A DNA stretch of 64,000 bases, taken from contig CAJFII010000006.1 of NCBI GenBank assembly GCA_904381285.1, positions 5,801-69,800 of the forward strand, read 5' to 3'. A program made the position numbers and the translations under genes. Positions 97 through 63,882 of this stretch are shown here, in pieces (position 1 is the stretch's first letter; each line of letters opens with the position of its first letter). Source of the stretch: an uncultured Clostridia bacterium. GTDB lineage: Bacteria; Bacillota; Clostridia; TANB77; CAG-508. The notes beneath the pieces were generated by a model that saw nothing but the letters and a program-made list of their open reading frames with translations, ran no database searches and was not told the DNA's origin.

Positions 97-588
97 TCCT
101 CTTGGATATGGTGGACGTGGTCTTGGCATAGGTGGTCTTGGAGGATTTCCTGGAAATTGAGGTCTATTATGTCTTCTCCTTAACAATTCATTTAATATTA
201 GAATTCTTATTAAATCTCTTAATAAATTATTGTTTTGTCTTGGAGATCTATCTTGTTGTCTTGTGTTAGAGTTTTTTCCATCTTCTTTTCTTGTCTCGAT
301 TTTTAAATCAATATCTATTGTACTTAATACATTATCTGTCATTTGTTCTAAAATTTCCTGCGTTATAGGCATATTATTATTACTACATTCTTTACTTACT
401 AAAGGATATATTTTTCTATATATTTCTGGATAGAAGTTTTCTATATCATCGTCATTTATATAGTTATTTGGCATTATGTAATAATCATTTGTATTAAAGG
501 TATCTTGCATACAATTTGGTGTGTATCCTAATACTGTTCTCATATATTCTTCATAAGATGTATTATTATACATATTAATCCCTCCCAT
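94..588 (-). CDS. hypothetical protein with proline-rich C-terminal tail
   Basis: 164-aa ORF with a Y/N/D-rich N-terminal part and a C-terminus PQFPGNPPRPPMPRPRPPYPRG. No family recognised. Confidence 0.45.
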   Translation of the reverse strand: MGGINMYNNTSYEEYMRTVLGYTPNCMQDTFNTNDYYIMPNNYINDDDIENFYPEIYRKIYPLVSKECSNNNMPITQEILEQMTDNVLSTIDIDLKIETRKEDGKNSNTRQQDRSPRQNNNLLRDLIRILILNELLRRRHNRPQFPGNPPRPPMPRPRPPYPRG

Positions 589-718
589 TATTTTATATAT
601 TAGAATATGTTTATTGTTATTTTTTTGTTACTATTATATAAAAACTATTAAAACTTGCATTTTTTTATTTAGTATAGTAAACTGAAACTATATTTATTTA
701 GAGAGGAAATAATTTCGT

Positions 719-1543
719 ATGAATATTTATCATTCTTTAAACGAACTAATATCATATATTGAACAAAATTTAGACTCAGATATTTCTTATACAAAACTTG
801 CACAATTTTTAGGAGTCAATGTATATACAATGCAAAGCTTATTTTCATTACTATGCAATGTAACTCTTACAGAATATATTAGAAAAAGAAGATTGTCTGA
901 TGCTGGATTTTATATATATAATACTGATTCCAAAATAATAGATGTGGCTCTAAAATACCAATATGAAAATCCTACATCTTTTTCAAGAGCTTTTGAGAAG
1001 TTTCACGGTATAAAACCTAGCCAAGTAAAAACTAATCCTGAAAAACTAAAATTATATACAAAAATAAATTTTAATGAAAATATATCAAGTCAAAATGAAA
1101 ATATCGAATATAGTATAATAGAACAAGATGAACTAGTTCTTTATGGAAAAGGATTTAAAACTTCTCATCAAAATTGCTCAAAAGAAGTACCAGCTTTCTT
1201 TAAGAAAATGTATGAAAAATATTTACCATACTATGGAGAAATAGACTATGGAATGACTGTATATGGATATTATGAAAATTATGAAAATAGATTTGAAACT
1301 AATGATTTAGAATATTGGATTTTATATAAAAAAGAAATTCCTGAATTCACCAAATATATTATTCCTAAAAGTAAATGGTTATGTTTTCGTATTCCTTCTT
1401 TTCAAGCTAGTGTAATTCAAGAAATGTCTAGAAAATTCTATTTGTCATTTTTACCTAGTTGTAAATACAATATAAGACCACTTCCGGAGTTAGAATATTA
1501 CCATGATGGTGTTACAGATTTTTTAGTTCCTATAGAAGATTAA
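719..1543 (+). CDS. AraC/XylS-family transcriptional regulator with C-terminal effector-binding (GyrI-like type) domain
   Basis: The N-terminal double HTH pattern (YTKLAQFLGVNVYTMQSLF ... ALKYQYENPTSFSRAFEKFHGIKPS) is typical of AraC-family regulators. A domain of about 160 aa follows. Confidence 0.85.
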   Translation: MNIYHSLNELISYIEQNLDSDISYTKLAQFLGVNVYTMQSLFSLLCNVTLTEYIRKRRLSDAGFYIYNTDSKIIDVALKYQYENPTSFSRAFEKFHGIKPSQVKTNPEKLKLYTKINFNENISSQNENIEYSIIEQDELVLYGKGFKTSHQNCSKEVPAFFKKMYEKYLPYYGEIDYGMTVYGYYENYENRFETNDLEYWILYKKEIPEFTKYIIPKSKWLCFRIPSFQASVIQEMSRKFYLSFLPSCKYNIRPLPELEYYHDGVTDFLVPIED

Positions 1544-1552
1544 TTTTATATA

Positions 1553-1592
1553 AACTGACTTTTTTTAAACGTAAAAAGTCAGTTGTTTTTTT
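1553..1592 (+). terminator. intrinsic terminator after the AraC-family gene
   Basis: AACTGACTTTTT / AAAAAGTCAGTT 12-bp stem followed by GTTTTTTT. Confidence 0.75.
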
Positions 1593-1628
1593 AAGCTTAT
1601 TGGTAAAATATATTTGGGTGAATATATT

Positions 1629-3572
1629 ATGAGAAACGAAATAATTTCAGAAATTATATTAACATCTGATAATGTAGAAAAAGATGCTTGGCTCTCACTA
1701 TTTAATTGCATCTCTAAGCTTAATGGCCTTTTTAAAACTTGTTACTTTTATGCCAAAATTGAATTAAATGAAGTTCACTATTATATAAAAACTTCACGCA
1801 TTTTGCCTCCTATTATTAGCTCTTTAGGAGATTTTATGATAAAGAAATTGGATATTAGTGAGGATGATTTACTGGATTTTCCTACTAAAACTTCTATACC
1901 TTTTATTGTAACAAATAAAGAAAGAAATTTATTAGATGTTTTTGATAAATTAGAAGCTAAATATAACCAAAAATTGAAATTAGTAAAAATGTCATTATTC
2001 TGTTATAGAAAAAGTCATTTTTTTACAAGAACTCGTTTATTTATTGAAAGAGAAAAATGTAATAGAAAAAAATTATTAAAAAGAAATGCATTATTAGTTA
2101 TTCCACATCACTTTTTTAGTATTAATTTTTCTATCTATAATCGTTTCTTTTATTTGAAAAATGTAAATGAATATTTAGATATTCAAAAAGCTCTACCATT
2201 ATTAAGAAATCAACGAAATAATGCAATTTTAAAAATAGATACATTTCCTTATTTAGCAGATGAATATTATCTTTCTCAAAATAGTTTTGATTTCGAGAAA
2301 CATTCTATAATTATAGGTTCTAGTGGAACTGGCAAATCTAAGTTAGCAAGTTCTATAATTGCTAATATTAATAATGAAATAAATTTTTCTACTAGCTATA
2401 AGGTTGTTGTAATCGATCCTCATGCGAGTTTAGAAAAAGAAATTGGTGGTCTAAATAATACTAAAGTTATAGATTTTAAAAGTATAGAAAATAGTACTGA
2501 CTTATTTATGAATTCACAAAAAAGAGATATTGTCGCATCTGTTGAACTAATTTTATCGTTATTTCAAACTTTAATGGCAGACCAATATAATTCTAAACTA
2601 GAAAGAGTATTAAGGCATAGTATTCATTTACTAATGGAAGAAAATTGTTTAAATTTTACTAATTTAAGAGAATTAATTTTAAATATGGAATATAGAAATA
2701 GTTTAATTAATGATGCTAAAGAAAAATTATTAGATAGTATTGTAAATTTCTTTTTAACAGATTTTAATGAATTAAAATCAAATTCTTATCAAGAAGCAAT
2801 CTCTCCAATCATATCTTTTATTGATGAAATAGAATTACTTCCTGCTTTTCAAGATGAAGGTATAAAACCACAAGTTAAAGATACTATCGAAAAAAATTTT
2901 TTAACTATATTTTCTTTAGACCAAACCGCACTTGGTCTAAAAGTAACAAAAACTATTTCAGGTTTAATATTACAACAGATACTAGAACTTATACAATCCT
3001 ATACATATGATGAACATATAATATTAGTAATTGATGAAGTTGCATTAATTGAAAATCCAATCTTGTGTAGATTTTTATCAGAAGCTAGAAAATATAATTT
3101 ATCACTTATCCTAATACAACAATACTTTAATCAAATTAGTGAAGAACTAAAAAGTGCAATATTTGCAAATGTAGCTAATTTTTATGTTTTTCGTGTTTCT
3201 AAATCAGATGCTATAGTTTTAGAAAATAATTTACATATGAATGTTGCTGTAAGAAATTCTTATAAGGTTAAACTTAAAATTTTAACTGAATTAAAAAATC
3301 GTGAATGTATCGTAAGAGTGAGTTCTAATGGAATTCCTCTTCCGGCTTTTAAAGCTAGAACTTTAGATTTTACCCCTTGTCCTAGAAAACATATTTGTCA
3401 GATATTACGAACTGATCCTCTCCTTAAAGAATTTAAATATCCTAAAACCAAAGTTAAATCATCTTTTTCTGAAAAGAATTTTTCTTTTCAAATTGGTGAA
3501 TCTGTTGATTCTCTCATGGATATTATGCATTCACAATCTTCTGGTAGAAAGCAGGTAGAAAATTATGGATAA
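1629..3572 (+). CDS. HerA/FtsK-superfamily P-loop ATPase (DUF87/VirB4/TraG-like core) with uncharacterised N-terminal region of about 230 aa
   Basis: Walker A SIIIGSSGTGKSK and Walker B HIILVIDEVA, followed by SEARKYNLSLILIQQYFNQI ... NFYVFRVS, which is typical of HerA/VirB4-type ATPases. The ATG at 1629 is preferred over the TTG at 1614. Confidence 0.7.
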   Translation: MRNEIISEIILTSDNVEKDAWLSLFNCISKLNGLFKTCYFYAKIELNEVHYYIKTSRILPPIISSLGDFMIKKLDISEDDLLDFPTKTSIPFIVTNKERNLLDVFDKLEAKYNQKLKLVKMSLFCYRKSHFFTRTRLFIEREKCNRKKLLKRNALLVIPHHFFSINFSIYNRFFYLKNVNEYLDIQKALPLLRNQRNNAILKIDTFPYLADEYYLSQNSFDFEKHSIIIGSSGTGKSKLASSIIANINNEINFSTSYKVVVIDPHASLEKEIGGLNNTKVIDFKSIENSTDLFMNSQKRDIVASVELILSLFQTLMADQYNSKLERVLRHSIHLLMEENCLNFTNLRELILNMEYRNSLINDAKEKLLDSIVNFFLTDFNELKSNSYQEAISPIISFIDEIELLPAFQDEGIKPQVKDTIEKNFLTIFSLDQTALGLKVTKTISGLILQQILELIQSYTYDEHIILVIDEVALIENPILCRFLSEARKYNLSLILIQQYFNQISEELKSAIFANVANFYVFRVSKSDAIVLENNLHMNVAVRNSYKVKLKILTELKNRECIVRVSSNGIPLPAFKARTLDFTPCPRKHICQILRTDPLLKEFKYPKTKVKSSFSEKNFSFQIGESVDSLMDIMHSQSSGRKQVENYG

Positions 3573-4266
3573 AAAAGAAGCTTCAGAAGTTATTAATAAA
3601 TCTTTTAATATGATATTTGGCAAAAATAACCCTTTTGATTTAGATACTATTTTTTCTAAATTTGCTTTTGATATAAAACTACCAAAAAAAGTTATGGATA
3701 CTTTAACTGGTGAAGAAACTTGGACAGAAAATATACATAGTAATAGATTTATAACTCAAGAAAATATGAGAAAATTTGACGCTAAGCATGGTTGGATACT
3801 ACCTAAACAAGATGTTAAGAATTTAAAAGATATTATTAATATATGGAAAACAGTAAACTATACAACAACTGAAAGGCAATATGATTGTATAAATGTTAGC
3901 AGAAGCGATCCTATTTATCGTTGTGAAAATGCTTTTCACTGTTCAGATTGTAGGGAGAGTAAAAATATCATTTTTTGTGATGGCTGTATTAACTGTGAGT
4001 TTACAATTGCTTCTCAAAGGACTTCAAGCGCAGGATTTTGTTTGCGTGTAGATGATTCATCTTCTTGTAGCAATAGTTATAATGTAATTTGTTCTAGTAA
4101 TATTAGTAATTCTTTTTTTATACAAGATTGTAGTAATCTACACGAATGTATTTTTTGTAGCCATATTTCAAATAAGAAGTATTGTATATCTAATATGCAA
4201 TTTGAAGAATCAGAATATTTTGTTATAAAAAAAGAAATAATAAATTGGATTCTAAATACAAAATAA
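3565..4266 (+). CDS. cysteine-rich protein of unknown function (14 Cys in residues 108-207)
   Basis: The start overlaps the upstream stop (ATGGATAA, 8-nt overlap). The C-terminal half has CxxC/CxxCxxC clusters (CSDC, CDGCINC, CIFC). No family recognised. Confidence 0.65.
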   Translation: MDKKEASEVINKSFNMIFGKNNPFDLDTIFSKFAFDIKLPKKVMDTLTGEETWTENIHSNRFITQENMRKFDAKHGWILPKQDVKNLKDIINIWKTVNYTTTERQYDCINVSRSDPIYRCENAFHCSDCRESKNIIFCDGCINCEFTIASQRTSSAGFCLRVDDSSSCSNSYNVICSSNISNSFFIQDCSNLHECIFCSHISNKKYCISNMQFEESEYFVIKKEIINWILNTK

Positions 4267-4284
4267 ATTATTCATTTAAGAATA

Positions 4285-4320
4285 GAAAAACTCGTACCTA
4301 TAGTTAGATACGAGTTTTTC
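4285..4320. terminator. bidirectional intrinsic terminator between the Cys-rich gene and murD
   Basis: GAAAAACTCGTA / TACGAGTTTTTC stem with A/T runs on both sides. Confidence 0.7.
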
Positions 4321-5721
4321 TTAAATACTATTAACTAATTCTTTAAATTTTTTTCCTCTTTGTGCATAATTCTCGAACATATCAAAACTTGCACTAGCAG
4401 GAGAAAACAAAACAATTTGACCTGGTTTTGCAATTTTATTTGCTATTTGTACTGTTTGTGAAAATTCATCACATATATAAATATCTAAATCTTTATTTTC
4501 TTCTTGTAATTTTTTGTTTACTACTTCATATATTTTCTCAGCAGTTTGCCCTATTAGTATTAATCCCTTTACTTTGTCTACTATTGGTTTTGCTAATGGC
4601 TCATAATCTAAGTTTTTATCATATCCTCCCGCAATAAGAATAATGTCTTCTTCAAATGAGTTTAATCCTGCAATTGTTCTTGTTGGACTAGTTCCAATAG
4701 AATCATTATACCATTTTACTCCATTAATTTCTTTTATAAATTCTAATCTGTGTTCTACTCCCTTAAATTCCTTTATTGCTTTTAATGCGGTTTCTGTATC
4801 CACTAATGTTTTTGTTGCCACATATGCTGCACATATATTTTCATAATTATGCATTCCTTTTAAATTTATATCCTTTGTATTCACAATATGTTTTCTTAAT
4901 TTGTCTTCACATTCTTTTATAATATCATTATCTACTATAATTCCATTATCTAATTTTTCTTTACTGCTAAAGTATATTACTTTTCCATTTGCATCTTGTT
5001 TACAGTCTCTTGTAATTTCATTATCATAATTTAATACCAATATTCCATTTTCATCTTGGCTTCTAAATATATTTTTCTTTGCTTCAATATATTCTTCATA
5101 TGAACTATGTAAATTTAAGTGATTTGGTGTTATATTTGTTATAACAGCTATGTCTGGACTTACAGTCATATTCATTAATTGAAAACTACTTAATTCTAAT
5201 ACTATTATATCTTCTGGCAATATATCATTTAATTTAGTGAATAATGGTGTACCTATATTCCCACCTAAATACACATTATACCCCGCTTCTTTTAGTATCT
5301 CATATATAAGTGTTGAGGTTGTTGTTTTGCCATCACTACCAGTTACTCCTACTATTTTACATGGTGCAATCTCCATAAGCATTTCTATTTCAGAAGTAAC
5401 AATTGCTCCTGAATCCTCAGCTTGTTTTAGTTCTTTTCTTGTTGGCATACAGCTTGGTGAACGAAATATCAAATCAAAGCCATTTAGTTTTGCTAAATTA
5501 TTTTCTCCAAAAGAAAATTCAAAAGTATATCTTGTGATTTTATCCATTATATCTTTAGGTATATCTTCAATACTTCTATCATCAAATACTGTAACTTTAG
5601 CTTGCAAATTGTATAAGTAATCTAAAAGTGGAATATTACTTATTCCTAGTCCAATTAATGCCACTTTTCTGTTTCTTAAGTATCTGTTAAATTCAACTAA
5701 TCTTTCATTAACATACTCCAA
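4321..5721 (-). CDS. murD: UDP-N-acetylmuramoylalanine--D-glutamate ligase
   Basis: Mur ligase P-loop GVTGSDGKTTT, an N-terminal Rossmann-like domain, and the typical 466-aa length. Confidence 0.9.
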   Translation of the reverse strand: MEYVNERLVEFNRYLRNRKVALIGLGISNIPLLDYLYNLQAKVTVFDDRSIEDIPKDIMDKITRYTFEFSFGENNLAKLNGFDLIFRSPSCMPTRKELKQAEDSGAIVTSEIEMLMEIAPCKIVGVTGSDGKTTTSTLIYEILKEAGYNVYLGGNIGTPLFTKLNDILPEDIIVLELSSFQLMNMTVSPDIAVITNITPNHLNLHSSYEEYIEAKKNIFRSQDENGILVLNYDNEITRDCKQDANGKVIYFSSKEKLDNGIIVDNDIIKECEDKLRKHIVNTKDINLKGMHNYENICAAYVATKTLVDTETALKAIKEFKGVEHRLEFIKEINGVKWYNDSIGTSPTRTIAGLNSFEEDIILIAGGYDKNLDYEPLAKPIVDKVKGLILIGQTAEKIYEVVNKKLQEENKDLDIYICDEFSQTVQIANKIAKPGQIVLFSPASASFDMFENYAQRGKKFKELVNSI

Positions 5722-5737
5722 AATACTTTCCTCCCTA

Positions 5738-6430
5738 TTATTTTAAACTTGGAAGTTTTATTTTTTCTAAAACTTTATTTGTGGATTCTTCTACTGTTTT
5801 GCACTCTGTTACATCTAATTTTATTGTATTTTTATACATTTTATAAAACCCTGCTTTTTCTTGTAATTCATCTCTTTTTATTATATTTTCTCGTACCTCT
5901 TCTTCTTTTACTTTTCCTTTATATTGTATGCATTTTCTTTTTACTCGTTCATCAATACTTGCTGTTATTAGAAAATGGTAATCTAAATCTGGATATATTT
6001 GCATAATATCTCTTCCTGATATTACAACATTATATGTTTTTTTCAAACTATTAATTAAATTTCTTGCAAATTCAAATAAAGCTGTATTATCAGCTATTCC
6101 TCCAACTACTGATACTGCCATTGATGCATCTTTTGATTGTAATTCTTCTTCTTTTGCTAATTCTCCATCTATATATATATTGGTTTCATTATTCTCTATT
6201 TTTAACTCTATATTAAAAAAGTCCATTATTTTTTTTATGTCTATGTTCTTTGCTTCATCTTTTAATTGTTCAATTTTCTTTCCATTTTTCATCATTGCAT
6301 ATACAATGGCTCTATATAAATTACCTCCATTTAATAAAACTGTATTTGGTATAATTTTAATCAATCTTCTGCATATAGAAGTTTTTCCAGCTCCAACTAA
6401 TCCTTCTATTCCTATTACAATATTATTCAT
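5738..6430 (-). CDS. cytidylate kinase-like (d)CMP kinase family protein
   Basis: P-loop GLVGAGKTS, GGNLYRA and GRD motifs. The ATG at 6430 is preceded by an AGAGGAG Shine-Dalgarno sequence; the ORF track starts it at 6463. Confidence 0.65.
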   Translation of the reverse strand: MNNIVIGIEGLVGAGKTSICRRLIKIIPNTVLLNGGNLYRAIVYAMMKNGKKIEQLKDEAKNIDIKKIMDFFNIELKIENNETNIYIDGELAKEEELQSKDASMAVSVVGGIADNTALFEFARNLINSLKKTYNVVISGRDIMQIYPDLDYHFLITASIDERVKRKCIQYKGKVKEEEVRENIIKRDELQEKAGFYKMYKNTIKLDVTECKTVEESTNKVLEKIKLPSLK

Positions 6431-6750: not shown

Positions 6751-9594
6751 TTATTCTAAATATTTCTTTAAAAACTTGCCAGTATAACTTTGTTCATTTC
6801 TTACAATTTGTTCTGGGCTTCCTACTGCTATTATTTGTCCACCTTTATCTCCACCTTCAGGTCCTAAATCTATTATATAATCTGCTGTTTTTATTAAATC
6901 TAAATTGTGTTCTATTACTATTATTGTATTTCCTGTGTCTACCAGCCTTTGCAAAATATCTACTAGTTTATGAACATCCGCTATATGTAGCCCTGTTGTT
7001 GGCTCATCTAATATATATAATGTCTTTCCTGTAGCTTTTTTAGAAAGCTCTGTTGCGAGTTTTACACGTTGTGCTTCTCCTCCTGATAATGTTGTTGAAG
7101 GTTGTCCTAGTTTAATGTACCCAAGGCCTACATCATATAACGTTTGTATTTTTTGTTTAATTCTAGGGACATTTTCAAAAAAGGTTAATGCTTCTTCAAC
7201 TGTCATATCTAATACATCTGCTATTGTTTTTCCTTTATATTTTACCTCCAATGTTTCTCTATTATATCTCTTTCCTTTACATACTTCACAAGGAACATAT
7301 ATATCTGGTAAAAAGTGCATTTCAATTTTTAATATTCCATCTCCTGAACAAGCTTCACATCTTCCTCCTGGAACATTAAAACTAAATCTTCCTTTTTGAT
7401 ATCCTCTTAATTTTGCTTCATTTGTTGTTGCAAAAATATCACGAATATGATCAAATACACCTGTATATGTTGCAGGATTTGAACGTGGTGTCCTTCCAAT
7501 AGGAGATTGGTCTATATTGATTATTTTATCTATATTTTGTAATCCTTTTACTTCTTTACATTTTCCTGGTTTTTCATTTGAACCATTTAACTCTTTTGCG
7601 ATTGTTTTATATAGTACTTCATTTATTAGAGTACTCTTTCCAGAACCTGAAACACCTGTTATACATGTAAATACACCTAAAGGAAATTTTACATTTATAT
7701 TTTTTAAATTATTTTCTTCTGCTCCTATTACTTCTATAGATTTTCCATTTGATTTTCTTCTTTTTTTAGGCACTAATATCTTCTTTTTTCCACTCAAATA
7801 TTGCCCTGTTATAGATTCAGGTATTCCCTTAATCTCTTCTGCTGTACCTTGTGCCATTATTCTACCACCATGTACACCTGCACCTGGTCCTATATCTATT
7901 ATTTGATCTGCTGCATACATTGTATCTTCATCATGCTCAACTACAATTAGAGTATTTCCTAAATCACGTAATTTTTTTAATGTGGCAATTAGTTTATCAT
8001 TATCTCTTTGATGTAGTCCAATACTTGGCTCATCTAGTATATATAATACACCAGTCAATCCAGAGCCTATTTGTGTAGCAAGACGTATACGTTGAGCTTC
8101 TCCTCCTGATAATGTTCCTGCTGGTCTTGATAATGTTAAATATTCTAGCCCAACATCAATTAAAAATTGTAGTCTTTGATTTAATTCTTTAAATATTTGA
8201 TTGGCTATCATCTCTTCTTTTTTAGTAAGTTTTAAAGATGATAAATATTCTTTTATCTTTACAATTGACATATCTGTTAATTCTTTAATGTTTTTATCTC
8301 CTACTTTTACAGATAGGCTCTCTTTTTTTAATCTTGCTCCTTTACATGTTTGGCATGGACTTTCACTCATATACATTTCATAAAAGTCCCTCATTCCTTG
8401 AGATTTTGTTTCATTATATCTTCTTTCAAGTGTTGGTATTACTCCTTCAAATGGTGCTCTAAATTTTCTTGTTCCAGTAGGTGAAGTATATTCAAAGTCA
8501 ATTTCTTCATCTCCTGTACCATAAAGTATTTTATCCAAAAATTCATGTGGCAATTTTTTTATTGGTTTCTTTATATCTACACCATAATGTCTTCCAATAC
8601 TTTCAAAATACATTTTTGCCATTGTATCGCCCTTTTTCATGGTACTTGCTCCAAATGCTTTTACTCCATCATATAAGGTTTTATTCCTATCTGGTATAAT
8701 TAAATCTTCATCCATTTTCATTAAGTATCCAATACCTGTACATGTTGGACATGCTCCAAATGGATTATTAAATGAAAACATCCTTGGTGATAATTCTTCA
8801 AAACTTATTCCGCAATCTGGACATGCATAATTTCCACTAAATAATTTTTCTTCATGTTTAGAACCAGAATTCGTTTGTTTTACAATATCTATTAATACTA
8901 AATTATCTGCATGTTTTAATGCAATTTCCACAGATTCTGCAAGTCTATTTCTTATTTCTTGTTTTATTACTAATCTATCTACTATAATTTCTACATTATG
9001 TTTTTTCTTTCTATCAATTTGTAAGTCATCCGTTAACTCTACTACTTCTCCATCTATTCTTGCACGAATGAATCCTTCTTTTACAAAGTCCGCTAATAAT
9101 TTTGTAAATTCTCCTTTTCTTCCTCTAACAATTGGTGCTAAAACTTGAATTTTAGTACCTTCTTCTAATTCCATGATACTATCTATTATTTGATCTACAG
9201 TTTGTTTTTCTATCTTTTTACCACAGTTTGGACAATATGGTATACCAATTCGTGCATATAAAAGACGAATATAATCATAAATTTCTGTTACTGTTCCTAC
9301 TGTAGAACGAGGATTTTTTGATGTAGTTTTTTGATCTATTGATATGGCTGGTGAAAGTCCTTCGATAACTTCTACATCTGGTTTTTCCATTAATCCTAAA
9401 AATTGACGTGCATATGCTGATAAACTTTCAACATATCTTCTTTGTCCTTCTGCATATAATGTATCAAATGCAAGAGATGATTTTCCTGAACCTGAAAGTC
9501 CTGTTATAACAACTAATTTATCTCTTGGTATTTCTAAATTTATATTTTTTAGATTGTGTTCTTTTGCTCCCTTTATTATTATTTTATCGTTCAT
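6751..9594 (-). CDS. uvrA: excinuclease ABC subunit A
   Basis: 947 aa with two ABC ATPase modules ([18 protein letters not shown]) and the signature LSGGEAQR twice. Confidence 0.95.
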
Positions 9595-18499: not shown

Positions 18500-21113
18500 T
18501 TATGAAACACTTTCTTTTAATTTAACTAATGTATTTAATGCTTCAATTGGTGTTAGCTCATTTAAGTTAATTTTATCAATCTCATGTGCAAGTTCTGCAA
18601 GCTTATAGTTATACAGGTCTAATTGTCCTGCAGGTTGCTTTTTATTTTCTTTTTCAGTTGCTTTCTGGGTTAGCGCACTTTTTCTTTCTAAGCTTTTTAA
18701 GATTTCATTTGCTTTTTTTACTACTGGTGCTGGAACTCCTGCTAGTTTTGCAACATGTATTCCATAGCTTTCATCTGTTCCACCTTGTACAATTTTTCTT
18801 AAGAAAATGATATCTTCTCCTTTTTCCTTTACTGCAATAGAATAATTCTTTATACCTTCTACTTGGTTTTCAAGTTGTGTAAGTTCATGATAATGTGTTG
18901 CAAATAATGTTTTTGCCCCGCATTTTTCCTTATCTGCTATATATGTAGCAACAGCCCAAGCTATTGATAGTCCATCATATGTTGAGGTTCCTCTACCTAT
19001 TTCGTCTAATATTACTAAACTATCACTAGTTGCTTCTTTTAATATATTTGCAACTTCCATCATTTCTACCATGAATGTACTTTGTCCCATACTTAAGTCG
19101 TCAGATGCACCAACTCTCGTAAAAATTTTATCTACAATTCCGATATTTGCACTACTTGCTGGTACAAAACTTCCAACTTGTGCCATAAGTGTAATTAGTG
19201 CAACTTGACGCATATATGTAGATTTTCCAGCCATATTAGGTCCTGTTATGATTGATAGTCTGTCTCCTTCTTTGTCTAAATATGTATCATTTTCTACAAA
19301 TGCACCACTTGGTAGCATTTTTTCTATAACAGGATGTCTTCCTCCTTTTATATCTATTACTCCATCTTCGGTCATTGTTGGCTTTGTATAATTTAAATCT
19401 TCTGCAACTGTTGCAAATGATGTTAAAACATCTAGTGTAGAAATAATATTAGCTGAGTCTTGTATTCTCTTAATTTGTTTTGCAAGTTCACATCTAATTT
19501 CTAAAAATAAATCATATTCTAAATTTATAAGTTTTTCTTGTGAGCCAAGAATTTTGTCTTCTAAATTCTTTAATTCTTCTGTAATATATCTTTCTGCATT
19601 TGTTAATGTTTGTTTTCTTATAAACCTTTCTGGAACTTGAGACAAGTTTGATTTTGTTACTTCTATAAAATATCCAAAAACTTTATTAAAACCTACTTTT
19701 AAGTTTTTAATACCTGTTTGTTCTTTTTCTTTAACCTCTAATTCCATAAGCCATTTCTTACCATCTGTTGTTGCAGACTTTAGTTCGTCTACTTCTTCAT
19801 TATACCCTTTTTTTATCATTCCACCTTCTTTTACTGAAATTGGTGGATCTTCTATAATTGCTCTATCTATTAATGTATATACATCTTTTAATTCATCTAA
19901 ATTTTGGTACAAGTTTTGAATTAATTTAGAACTTGTTGTTGATAAAATAGATTTTATTTCTGGCAACTGTTTTATTGAGTTTTTAAGTGAAATCATATCT
20001 CTTGCATTAGCATTTCCATAAGATATTTTTCCTATTAATCTTTCTATATCATAAACTTTTTTTAGATTTTCTATTATATCTCCTCTTAACATTAAATTGT
20101 TTTTTAACTCTTCTACTGCATCAAGTCTATTTCTAATTTCTGTTATATCTATTAAAGGATCATTTAGCCATCTCCTTAACATTCTTCCTCCCATGGATGT
20201 TGAGGTTTTATCTAATACCCATAATAGTGTCCCTTTTTTTGATTTATCTCTCATTCTTTCCGTTATTTCTAAGTTACGCCTTGCACTAATATCTAATGCC
20301 ATATATTTATTTGTATTATATATTTGTATTGTATTTATATGTTCTAATTTTATTTTTTGAGTTTGATTTAAATAATCTAAAAGTCCATTAATTGCTGATA
20401 CTGTGAACAATTTATCGTCAAATCTATTTACTTTTTCTCCCTTATCTGTTACTATTTCATAATTTGCAACAAGATTATCTGTGTTTGTACTAAATGAGTT
20501 TTCATCAACTTTTGAAATATATAATCCAAATCTTTCTTTAATTTTAGCTATTTCTTCTGTACTAGAATATAGTAAATCATTTGCTATAATTTCTGCTGGA
20601 GTAAAACGTGACATTTCATCTAACAATCTTTCAAAATTATTGTTTTGATTGATTTGTGTTGCATAAAATTCTCCTGTTGAGACATCACAAACTGCAACAC
20701 CAAAATATATTCCCTTCTTAAAAATACTCATTATATAATTATTTTTCTTTTCCTCTAATAAGTTTGATTCTATAACTGTACCCGGTGTTACAACTCTTAT
20801 AACATCTCTTTTTACAATTCCTTTGGCTTGTTTTGGATCTTCTAATTGCTCACATATTGCTACTTTATATCCTTTACCGTATTAATCTTGCAATATACAT
20901 CTCAGCAGCATGAAAAGGAACACCACACATAGGTGCTCTTTCTTCTTGACCACAGTCTTTTCCTGTTAATGTGATTTCTAATTCTCTTGAGGCAGTTAAA
21001 GCATCATCAAAAAACATTTCATAAAAATCACCTAAACGATAAAATAAAATGCAGTCTTTATATTTTTCTTTTGTATCTAAATAATGTTGCATCATTGGAG
21101 AAAATTCTGCCAT
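18500..21113 (-). pseudogene. mutS: DNA mismatch repair protein MutS, interrupted by a +1 frameshift near 20877-20880
   Basis: The N-terminal 79-aa ORF (20874-21113, [12 protein letters not shown]...AARLIR*) and the 18500-20731 ORF are contiguous MutS sequence. The total span of 2614 nt is not a multiple of 3. Walker A GPNMAGKST is present. Confidence 0.85.
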
Positions 21114-63791: not shown

Positions 63792-63882
63792 TGGCGGAGT
63801 GGGTGGGATTCGAACCCACGGGCCCTATAAAGGACTACTACAGTTCCAGTGTAGCTCGTTATGACCACTTCGATACCACTCC
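63792..63882 (-). tRNA. tRNA-Ser (anticodon GGA), CCA encoded
   Basis: Manual fold: acceptor stem GGAGTGG/CCACTCC, anticodon stem CTACA/TGTAG with loop CTGGAAC, long variable arm, T arm GTGGG-TTCGAAT-CCCAC, discriminator G, then CCA. Confidence 0.9.

Follow-up and report, generated by a model that had tools for sequence, protein, structure and literature searches.

A 64,000-nt stretch of DNA from an uncultured Clostridia bacterium (contig CAJFII010000006.1, positions 5,801 to 69,800; at its full length called here the window) carries close to its start three plus-strand open reading frames (ORFs), which encode an AraC-type regulator, a P-loop ATPase and a Cys-rich partner protein (Table 1). 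Our results favor, with a confidence that stays a little short of even, a chromosomal, vertically inherited three-part module made up of a regulator, a motor and a stoichiometric adaptor, which is neither a known defense system nor the remnant of a mobile element. A first-pass annotation of the same DNA had picked out the ATPase and its partner as an isolated, translationally coupled two-gene system bounded by its own terminators, with a possible role in defense against phages. No description of the pair was found in the literature.

The distribution of the pair was scanned in one genome per GTDB species, and 80 Clostridial loci were fetched. Relatives were found, in single copy, in 486 GTDB species of TANB77-type gut Clostridia, among them Ca. 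Scatovivens faecipullorum, which belongs to the order TANB77, family CAG-508 (PMC13106387). The ATPase gene lies directly upstream of the partner gene in all 79 informative loci (79/79), an adjacency far beyond chance, and stop/start overlaps of 8, 11, 4 or 1 nt join the two genes in 58 of the 80. In the window, the partner ATG overlaps the ATPase stop by 8 nt (ATGGATAA), as the first-pass annotation had stated. With relatives also in archaea, its proposal of a genuine translationally coupled ATPase-partner system that co-occurs outside this genome was borne out. Word-indexed searches returned 1756 homologues of the ATPase and 792 of the partner, all from uncultured gut Clostridia.

Around the constant trio, the flanks fall, by flanking-ORF clustering, into at least 10 synteny groups, each common to several species and containing housekeeping genes (e.g., those for FBP aldolase, SmpB, sortase, PPIase and penicillin-binding proteins, PBPs). 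For one synteny group of 14 species, mean pairwise identities were 94% for FBP aldolase, 86% for both SmpB and PPIase, 82% for the partner, 74% for the ATPase, 72% for PBP, 68.5% for AraC and 66% for sortase. Conservation of the partner is comparable to that of SmpB and PPIase, and in the same group its divergence is correlated with that of the ATPase (rho 0.77, p 8e-11). This indicates that the module is inherited vertically under strong purifying selection, with its surroundings changed by ordinary genome rearrangement, and that it is neither a mobile cassette nor an island resident. The idea of a universal housekeeping neighbor of murD was rejected, as murD, cmk and uvrA flank the unit in no other locus fetched.

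Such a pattern bears directly on whether the pair could be left over from a conjugative element or prophage, that is, a stranded coupling protein, VirB4 or packaging ATPase together with an accessory gene. The ATPase does belong to the FtsK/HerA/VirD4 superfamily and weakly matches a PHROG named 'terminase large subunit' (3.3e-6). Yet no relaxase, type IV secretion system (T4SS), integrase, capsid or transposase gene was found in the window or in the 80 Clostridial loci, and relatives were absent from 50,697 phage records and 72,556 plasmid records searched by tblastn and from IMG/VR. In hundreds of species both genes remain intact and evolve under strong purifying selection, and their GC content is that of their surroundings. 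These results effectively refute an origin by decay of a mobile element, including the decayed integrative and conjugative element that had been named earlier as the alternative to be considered.

Analysis of the 647-aa ATPase revealed an N-terminal domain specific to the family (residues ~1-220), a motor (~220-585) and a C-terminal tail ending in SQSSGRK. Its motifs, GSSGTGKSK (Walker A), ILVIDEVA (Walker B), EARKYNLSLILIQQ and FYVFRVS, include all those reported in the first-pass annotation exactly as they had been read, and Walker A, Walker B and the Arg finger are invariant in 25 homologues. Residues 222-391 belong to the Pfam DUF87/HerA central domain (PF01935; 35.8 bits vs. a cutoff of 23.2). 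At the same time, residues 1-196 gave no match in Pfam, NCBIfam or PADLOC, in agreement with the earlier remark that the first ~230 aa resemble nothing recognizable. No transmembrane (TM)-like segment was detected in the ATPase, the maximum 19-residue hydropathy (1.54) being located at Walker B. In three loci (L045, L062 and L078) the tblastn match of the ATPase begins only at residue ~231-233, and a separate ORF (cluster 65) stands between araC and the ATPase gene in place of the N-domain, which may there be separately encoded or strongly diverged. The SQSSGRK motif is conserved and follows a variable linker (window 3520-3560, ATPase residues ~630-641). Archaeal ATPase orthologues end instead in long, acidic, Lys-rich tails of low complexity, up to ~350 aa in length. 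The tail may serve in docking or in nucleic-acid binding.

Comparison with models of specific families showed that the resemblance to known members of the superfamily does not extend beyond the motor. The Pfam score for FtsK_SpoIIIE was 13.7 bits vs. a cutoff of 24, which sets the protein apart from FtsK/SpoIIIE translocases; TrwB_AAD_bind reached 19.3 vs. 20.5, TraG-D_C 19.5 vs. 22, TraD (TIGR03743) 14.7 vs. 366, and CedD of the Ced system (NCBIfam NF053655) 31.2 bits vs. an equivalog cutoff of 600. For antiphage HerA (NCBIfam NF042943) only the Walker A region was matched, with 14.9 bits vs. 800. Hence, of the assignment to the HerA family made at first, the DUF87 P-loop motor was retained and similarity beyond the motor was not. 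The best PADLOC profiles were mad8 and HerA (7.9e-11), and among PDB sequences the ATPase profile matched the antiphage HerA entries 8xau (E 1e-5), 8ziq and 8wiv best. The ATPase also matches phrog_5156 (E 4e-17), with no tblastn relatives in phage genomes, and many of its homologues have precomputed PF10412 matches.

The HerA-NurA complex is an archaeal and bacterial DNA end-resection machine in which a NurA dimer docks on a HerA hexamer. Our module resembles it in that a HerA-clade ring ATPase is encoded beside a smaller partner, and the two-module fusion of the partner seen in archaea mirrors a dimeric partner protein. It differs in several respects: the partner has no NurA/RNase-H-like domain or detectable catalytic motif, no HAS-barrel match was obtained in the N-terminal 220 aa of the ATPase, there are no Mre11/Rad50 neighbors, and the operon has its own transcription factor. 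Neither residues 1-196 nor the partner thus gave the match (HAS-barrel and adjacent NurA, respectively) that would mark a canonical HerA helicase. The MADS system is an 8-gene operon, mad1-mad8 (bioRxiv 10.1101/2023.03.30.534895). Its mad8 profile is the best PADLOC match to the motor domain (E 1.3e-16, 59 bits, residues 223-564), but no other mad gene is present here, the neighbors being AraC, murD and cmk, and the profile, of 314 positions, lacks the N-terminal domain and the tail of our ATPase. The module is therefore not a MADS system, and the MADS and CedD leads were both set aside as generic motor similarity.

These matches are also the starting point for the antiphage reading of the first-pass annotation, according to which a HerA-type hexamer would scaffold a new effector or sensor in defense against phages or other mobile genetic elements. 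The closest PDB and PADLOC relatives of the ATPase are consistent with it, and so is the compact operon of a HerA-type ATPase with one partner, as in SIR2-HerA and DUF4297-HerA; weak matches to two PHROGs of unknown function point the same way. The similarity, however, is limited to Walker A and the Arg finger, PADLOC gave no match for the partner, which is neither SIR2 nor DUF4297, and the module is core-like in its genomes rather than island-like. The earlier suggestion that homologues be surveyed gave a divided answer, in that the overlapping pair recurred and defense-island neighbors did not: no defense gene was found within 8 kb in the flanks of the 80 Clostridial loci, which hold housekeeping genes instead and no mobile elements, and the position of the module is stable within sub-lineages. 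A partner conserved to the degree of SmpB and PPIase is unlike fast-evolving defense effectors; the module is single-copy and widespread in one order, and it has no relatives in the phage, plasmid and viral collections searched. No conserved catalytic constellation was found across the partner family, and a ligand-binding AraC regulator is unusual for defense operons. With no positive evidence in its favor and selection of housekeeping grade, we regard a defense function as unlikely.

The partner, in which 14 cysteines were counted, is composed of an alpha/beta subdomain (residues ~1-105), a Cys/Ser-rich, beta-rich repeat (~106-212) and a C-terminal helix. The repeat region has a 6/12-residue period and ends in ECIFCSHxxxxKYCIxN; Cys/Ser autocorrelation has maxima at 6, 12, 18 and 24 residues, with 12 for the window protein. 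An exhaustive profile search yielded 1035 representative clusters. Among Clostridial partners only C168, C195, C198, H200 and C207 are invariant; at the remaining Cys positions Cys and Ser alternate, and distant single-module members have Ser for Cys in plain six-residue repeats (e.g., IYGSSD, IYNSSH, IFNSRK). In archaea the C-terminal motif reads MFSFNxxSKRYxIGN or MFCFNxKxKRYAIGN, and CxxCxH..C is absent, indicating that the cysteines are not universal ligands. For the same reason the reading of Cys-richness as many metal sites was rejected, the four Cys and one His being invariant in Clostridia only. Cys-richness is a lineage-specific filling of the 6/12-residue repeat. No catalytic or metal motif common to the whole family was found; cross-family invariants are mainly G, N, F and Y, which, with the absence of CxxCxH..C from archaea, argues for a structural rather than a catalytic role. 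The partner has no TM-like or signal-like segment, and the pI of its C-terminal half is 5.3. Residues 106-207, and residues 374-493 of the archaeal protein P0406, weakly match phrog_15341 (8e-6 and 2e-4), a phage protein family of unknown function; no tblastn relatives were seen in phage genomes.

An AlphaFold2 model of the window partner, built with 18 close homologues, was unusable (pLDDT 44.5). Instead, a model of an archaeal fused double module, supported by 108 diverse sequences, reached a pLDDT of 88.7 and a pTM of 0.88 and formed one compact body, each module having helices at its N-terminus, then a small sheet and a long beta-rich repeat, and a long helix at its C-terminus. This predicted compact fusion fits with dimerization of single modules. 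Foldseek searches with the archaeal model gave a best E of 0.096 with TM-scores of at most 0.25 in the PDB and no match with E <=0.001 in BFVD, ruling out a jelly-roll capsid, a left-handed beta-helix (LbH) enzyme or a tail fiber as its identity. Like hexapeptide LbH proteins, which make up most of the weak Foldseek list, the partner has a 6/12-residue period; unlike them, it gave no Hexapep Pfam match and, in the archaeal model, no fold superposition (TM <=0.25). Small Cys/Ser at repeat positions are likewise a feature of Cys-ladder beta-solenoids such as the Tenebrio antifreeze protein. The partner differs from both LbH and Cys-ladder proteins by its additional N-terminal alpha/beta subdomain and long C-terminal helix, and a disulfide ladder is unlikely because the protein is cytoplasmic. 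As Pfam, NCBIfam, PADLOC and PDB sequence profiles were negative as well, the earlier statement that the partner resembles neither SIR2 nor DUF4297 was confirmed, and we conclude that it represents a new family and probably serves as a structural component or adaptor and not as an enzyme.

Orthologues of both proteins are present outside the bacteria. Many of the representative matches to the partner are ~525 aa long, match its profile twice and come from Candidatus Micrarchaeota. Profile alignment (hhalign) of the partner with the archaeal modules gave a probability of 99.3% (E 1.5e-20, 224 columns), and that of the ATPase with its archaeal orthologues a probability of 100% (E 8.6e-46) over 531 columns that include the N-domain. 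Among 78 metagenome loci, all 13 that bear the ATPase gene (13/13) have adjacent partner-family genes. Locus L085 (1-14555) holds at least nine tandem partner paralogues followed by a convergent gene for a 723-aa DUF87 ATPase; in L086, single and double modules and an HTH_10 gene lie upstream of that for a 581-aa ATPase. HTH_10 orthologues recur in or beside archaeal arrays, so that the transcription factor differs by lineage, AraC/GyrI-like in Clostridia and HTH_10 in the archaeal arrays. Locus L089 (52% GC) encodes a full-length ATPase (E 2e-121) and then six coupled single-module paralogues with mutual identities of 40-53%, and a lone partner-family copy is found in a Dojkabacteria-like bacterium of the candidate phyla radiation (CPR). 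In Micrarchaeota (L085, L098, L117, L115) the arrays comprise 7-9 or more tandem genes of ~1.6 kb, each encoding ~530 aa, and occupy >14 kb in a ~1 Mb genome. Solo copies were seen elsewhere on the same Micrarchaeota contigs (L094 with L137; L106 with L111). Immediately upstream of the array in L086 (1-2768), and also in L094, are genes for an ATPase (T2SSE) and a platform protein (T2SSF) resembling those of archaeal type IV pili, and a HicA toxin gene.

These archaeal loci bear on the antiphage reading once more, since its arrays would be diversified recognition modules, the patchy spread across domains implies horizontal transfer, and TnpB and HTH genes adjoin locus L089. They also bring in another alternative, namely that the system handles proteins: the ATPase would be an unfoldase or a receptor like type IV coupling proteins (T4CPs) or EssC, and the repeat proteins its exported effectors or structural subunits. 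Arrays of 2-9 paralogues with dispersed solo copies are what is known for substrates of type VII secretion systems (T7SS), where EssC/EccC is likewise one ATPase accompanied by arrays of small paralogues, and the L086 array is immediately preceded by T2SSE and T2SSF genes. The ATPase shares the superfamily of the T4CPs TrwB, VirD4 and TraG, shows weak TrwB_AAD_bind and TraG-D_C similarity, its Walker A-B insertion weakly matching the TrwB all-alpha domain, and has many homologues with PF10412 matches; that of L085 is named 'type IV secretion system DNA-binding domain-containing protein' at NCBI. The repeat architecture of the partner would in addition suit self-assembly. Nevertheless, the TrwB_AAD_bind and TraD scores stay below their cutoffs, neither protein has a TM segment or the partner a signal sequence, and in no Clostridial locus does the module come with a conserved membrane-channel gene. 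The absence of a membrane component weakens a role in secretion or as substrates, and the lack of T4SS or relaxase linkage, with the T4CP family models unmatched, sets the ATPase apart from type IV coupling proteins. Moreover, Clostridia have one partner copy only, strongly co-varying with the ATPase. We consider protein handling of this kind quite improbable.

For the third component, Pfam scores of 56.9 bits for HTH_18 (cutoff 33.6), 40.2 for HTH_AraC (26.6) and 33.7 for Cass2 (27) identify the product of the upstream gene as an AraC/XylS protein with a GyrI-like effector domain, although it is not a RobA equivalog (63.5 bits vs. the NCBIfam cutoff of 380). Of 71 informative GTDB loci, 66 have an araC orthologue directly upstream of the ATPase gene, irrespective of the outer flanks. 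Of the remaining five, three (L020 at ~5830-6092, L022 and L024) retain the first 4-15 codons of araC together with the hairpin described below and the promoter, and are therefore internal deletions; in L051, araC is separated from the ATPase gene by an insertion of 2.3 kb. Consequently, the pair is neither isolated nor a two-gene system, as had been thought, since the regulator gene and the conserved hairpin belong to the unit.

The hairpin with its T-run between araC and the ATPase gene was the sole terminator-like site reported by a scan of positions 500-4500. Its consensus is AACTGA(C/T)TTTTT, a loop of 8 nt and AAAAAGTCAGTT followed by the T-run. It lies within window positions 1545-1619 and at the same place in loci L005-L084, with its sequence kept across ~60 species. 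The strict motif occurs once per locus in 46 loci, at the spacer position only, and within the 64-kb window at 1550-1587 only. In a gapless alignment of 49 loci, 96.8% of cells were paired and the right arm was invariant, while the left arm showed 16 C-to-T changes that keep G.U pairs and 11 changes that break a pair; compensatory changes occurred in three outer pairs. That the two arms are unequally conserved suggests a double function, as terminator and as operator. Both hairpins by which the first-pass annotation had delimited the pair are indeed present, but the upstream one is a conserved cis-element of the module and not a mere boundary. It matches no Rfam family at gathering score in a search of the window, which returned a single tRNA only.

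In 52 of 64 loci, GTCAGT is followed at a distance of exactly 20 nt by a TAnAAT box, which in 33 of the 52 carries a TG extension, and alignment columns 60, 61, 63 and 65, within the predicted promoter, are invariant or nearly so. In the window, transcription from it is predicted to start at ~1616. The fixed distance places the invariant arm in the -35 region of this predicted promoter, which lacks a -35 hexamer. Class II activators of the MarA/SoxS/Rob type occupy the same position. The regulator shares the Rob architecture (HTH_18 and GyrI-like), and the overlap of the conserved site with the -35 region resembles class II activation; the difference is that the putative site is the 3′ arm of a terminator hairpin, unlike a marbox. 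Judged from the sequences, the right arm would be the binding site of the regulator and the left arm would be kept only for termination of araC.

From these elements the following mechanism can be proposed. The AraC/GyrI-like factor would sense a ligand and probably control the operon, through the invariant AAAAAGTCAGT that covers the -35 region of the extended -10 promoter and doubles as the 3′ arm of the araC terminator. The motor would be a soluble ring-type ATPase of the HerA/FtsK/TrwB class with an N-terminal domain of its own, and the partner a non-enzymatic beta-rich repeat protein supplied in stoichiometric amounts by translational coupling. The partner may self-associate as a dimer, for which the archaeal fusion would be a pseudo-dimer, and, by analogy with NurA, SIR2 and DUF4297 on HerA, may dock on the ATPase as an adaptor, cap or specificity subunit. 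The two-module fusion, translational coupling and correlated evolution favor a stoichiometric complex. Once its expression is induced by a small molecule, the motor would act on a polymer, most likely DNA, which is the default substrate for the HerA/FtsK family.

Several observations weigh against this proposal of a regulated motor with its adaptor. One species (L003 at 9400-9500, L004, and L054 at 7397-7497) has a 1-nt frameshift in the ATPase gene with the partner intact. The frameshift is an insertion, ATTTCT-C-GGATTA, between Walker A and Walker B that leaves ORFs of 449 and 198 aa; its sequence is identical in three independent assemblies of that species, in which araC is intact too, and the ATPase is either a pseudogene or a tolerated split. 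The pair also persists in at least three species after deletion of araC. Rob-type AraC proteins usually bind asymmetric sites as monomers, the assignment of the site draws solely on position and conservation, and the element may be no more than a terminator whose sequence is constrained in some other way. The arrays of up to nine diverged paralogues, the solo Micrarchaeota copies and the lone CPR copy fit equally well with substrates or with a role independent of the ATPase. Finally, the patchy spread over TANB77, DPANN and CPR implies that the module was transferred horizontally long ago, as conflict systems commonly are.

A broader possibility, which we find rather doubtful though less so than a defense function, is that the module represents an unrecognized class of ATPase-driven machinery common to anaerobes with small genomes, namely TANB77 Clostridia, DPANN Micrarchaeota and some CPR bacteria, and is neither a defense system nor a described secretion type. 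If so, a ring motor would work on or with self-associating beta-repeat proteins of a new fold, and might assemble, remodel or load a proteinaceous structure or a nucleoprotein complex under small-molecule control. While the architecture of a HerA-type ATPase with a docking partner is known, the module departs from it by its new partner family and N-terminal domain, its dedicated regulation and its unusual phyletic range. The partner family has >1000 clusters at 50% identity, is unannotated and lacks a solved or predicted viral structural relative. It is tied to a distinct HerA/FtsK subfamily in two domains of life and would extend the HerA/FtsK motor repertoire by a new class of partner. TANB77 are widespread, almost entirely uncultured gut Clostridia with small genomes, and housekeeping-grade selection in them, together with the expansion in Micrarchaeota, suggests that the function is probably important for these organisms. 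The arrangement of hairpin, promoter and AraC offers a means of testing the regulation and possibly of finding the inducing ligand.

Table 1. Features of the module and of its surroundings in the window
Feature	Position	Strand	Remarks
AraC/XylS-family transcription factor, 274 aa	719-1543	+	Rob-like architecture: N-terminal HTH_18, C-terminal GyrI-like/Cass2
Hairpin with T-run	1553-1592	+	Left arm 1553-1564, loop 1565-1572, right arm 1573-1584 (AAAAAGTCAGTT), T-run to 1592
Predicted extended -10 promoter element	1601-1609	+	TGGTAAAAT; putative promoter of the ATPase-partner operon
Soluble HerA/FtsK/TrwB-class P-loop ATPase, 647 aa	1629-3572	+	ATG chosen to match N-termini of homologues
Partner, 233 aa, 14 Cys	3565-4266	+	Founding member of new family
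Hairpin, 12 bp, A/T-flanked	4285-4320		GAAAAACTCGTA-N12-TACGAGTTTTTC, read directly; between partner and convergent murD
ORF, 164 aa	94-588	-	Pro/Arg-rich C-terminus (…PQFPGNPPRPPMPRPRPPYPRG)
uvrA	6751-9594	-	DNA repair
mutS	18500-20731	-	DNA repair
tRNA	63795-63882		Rfam match

The hairpin downstream of the partner gene is probably a bidirectional terminator of the partner and murD; the terminator scan missed it because its loop of 12 nt exceeds 8 nt. The 164-aa ORF upstream of the module has no Pfam match and adjoins the trio in no other locus. Genes within ~20 kb include murD, cmk, uvrA, asnB, mutS and those for an HTH_3 protein, an AMP-binding enzyme and DUF1836; relaxase, T4SS, phage and transposase genes are absent over that distance, as had been noted at the outset. 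The DNA repair genes uvrA and mutS stand within 16 kb of the module in this genome, a linkage that is probably coincidental as it is not kept in other genomes. The earlier observation that the pair lies on the plus strand of a mostly minus-strand window proved correct: between 9 and 64 kb, the minus strand carries 35 of the 39 ORFs with a length of 180 aa or more, and the plus strand four, one of which overlaps a longer minus-strand ORF. GC content across 1-5 kb is 0.23-0.27, like the remainder of the window, and GC skew flips to positive across 1-4 kb.

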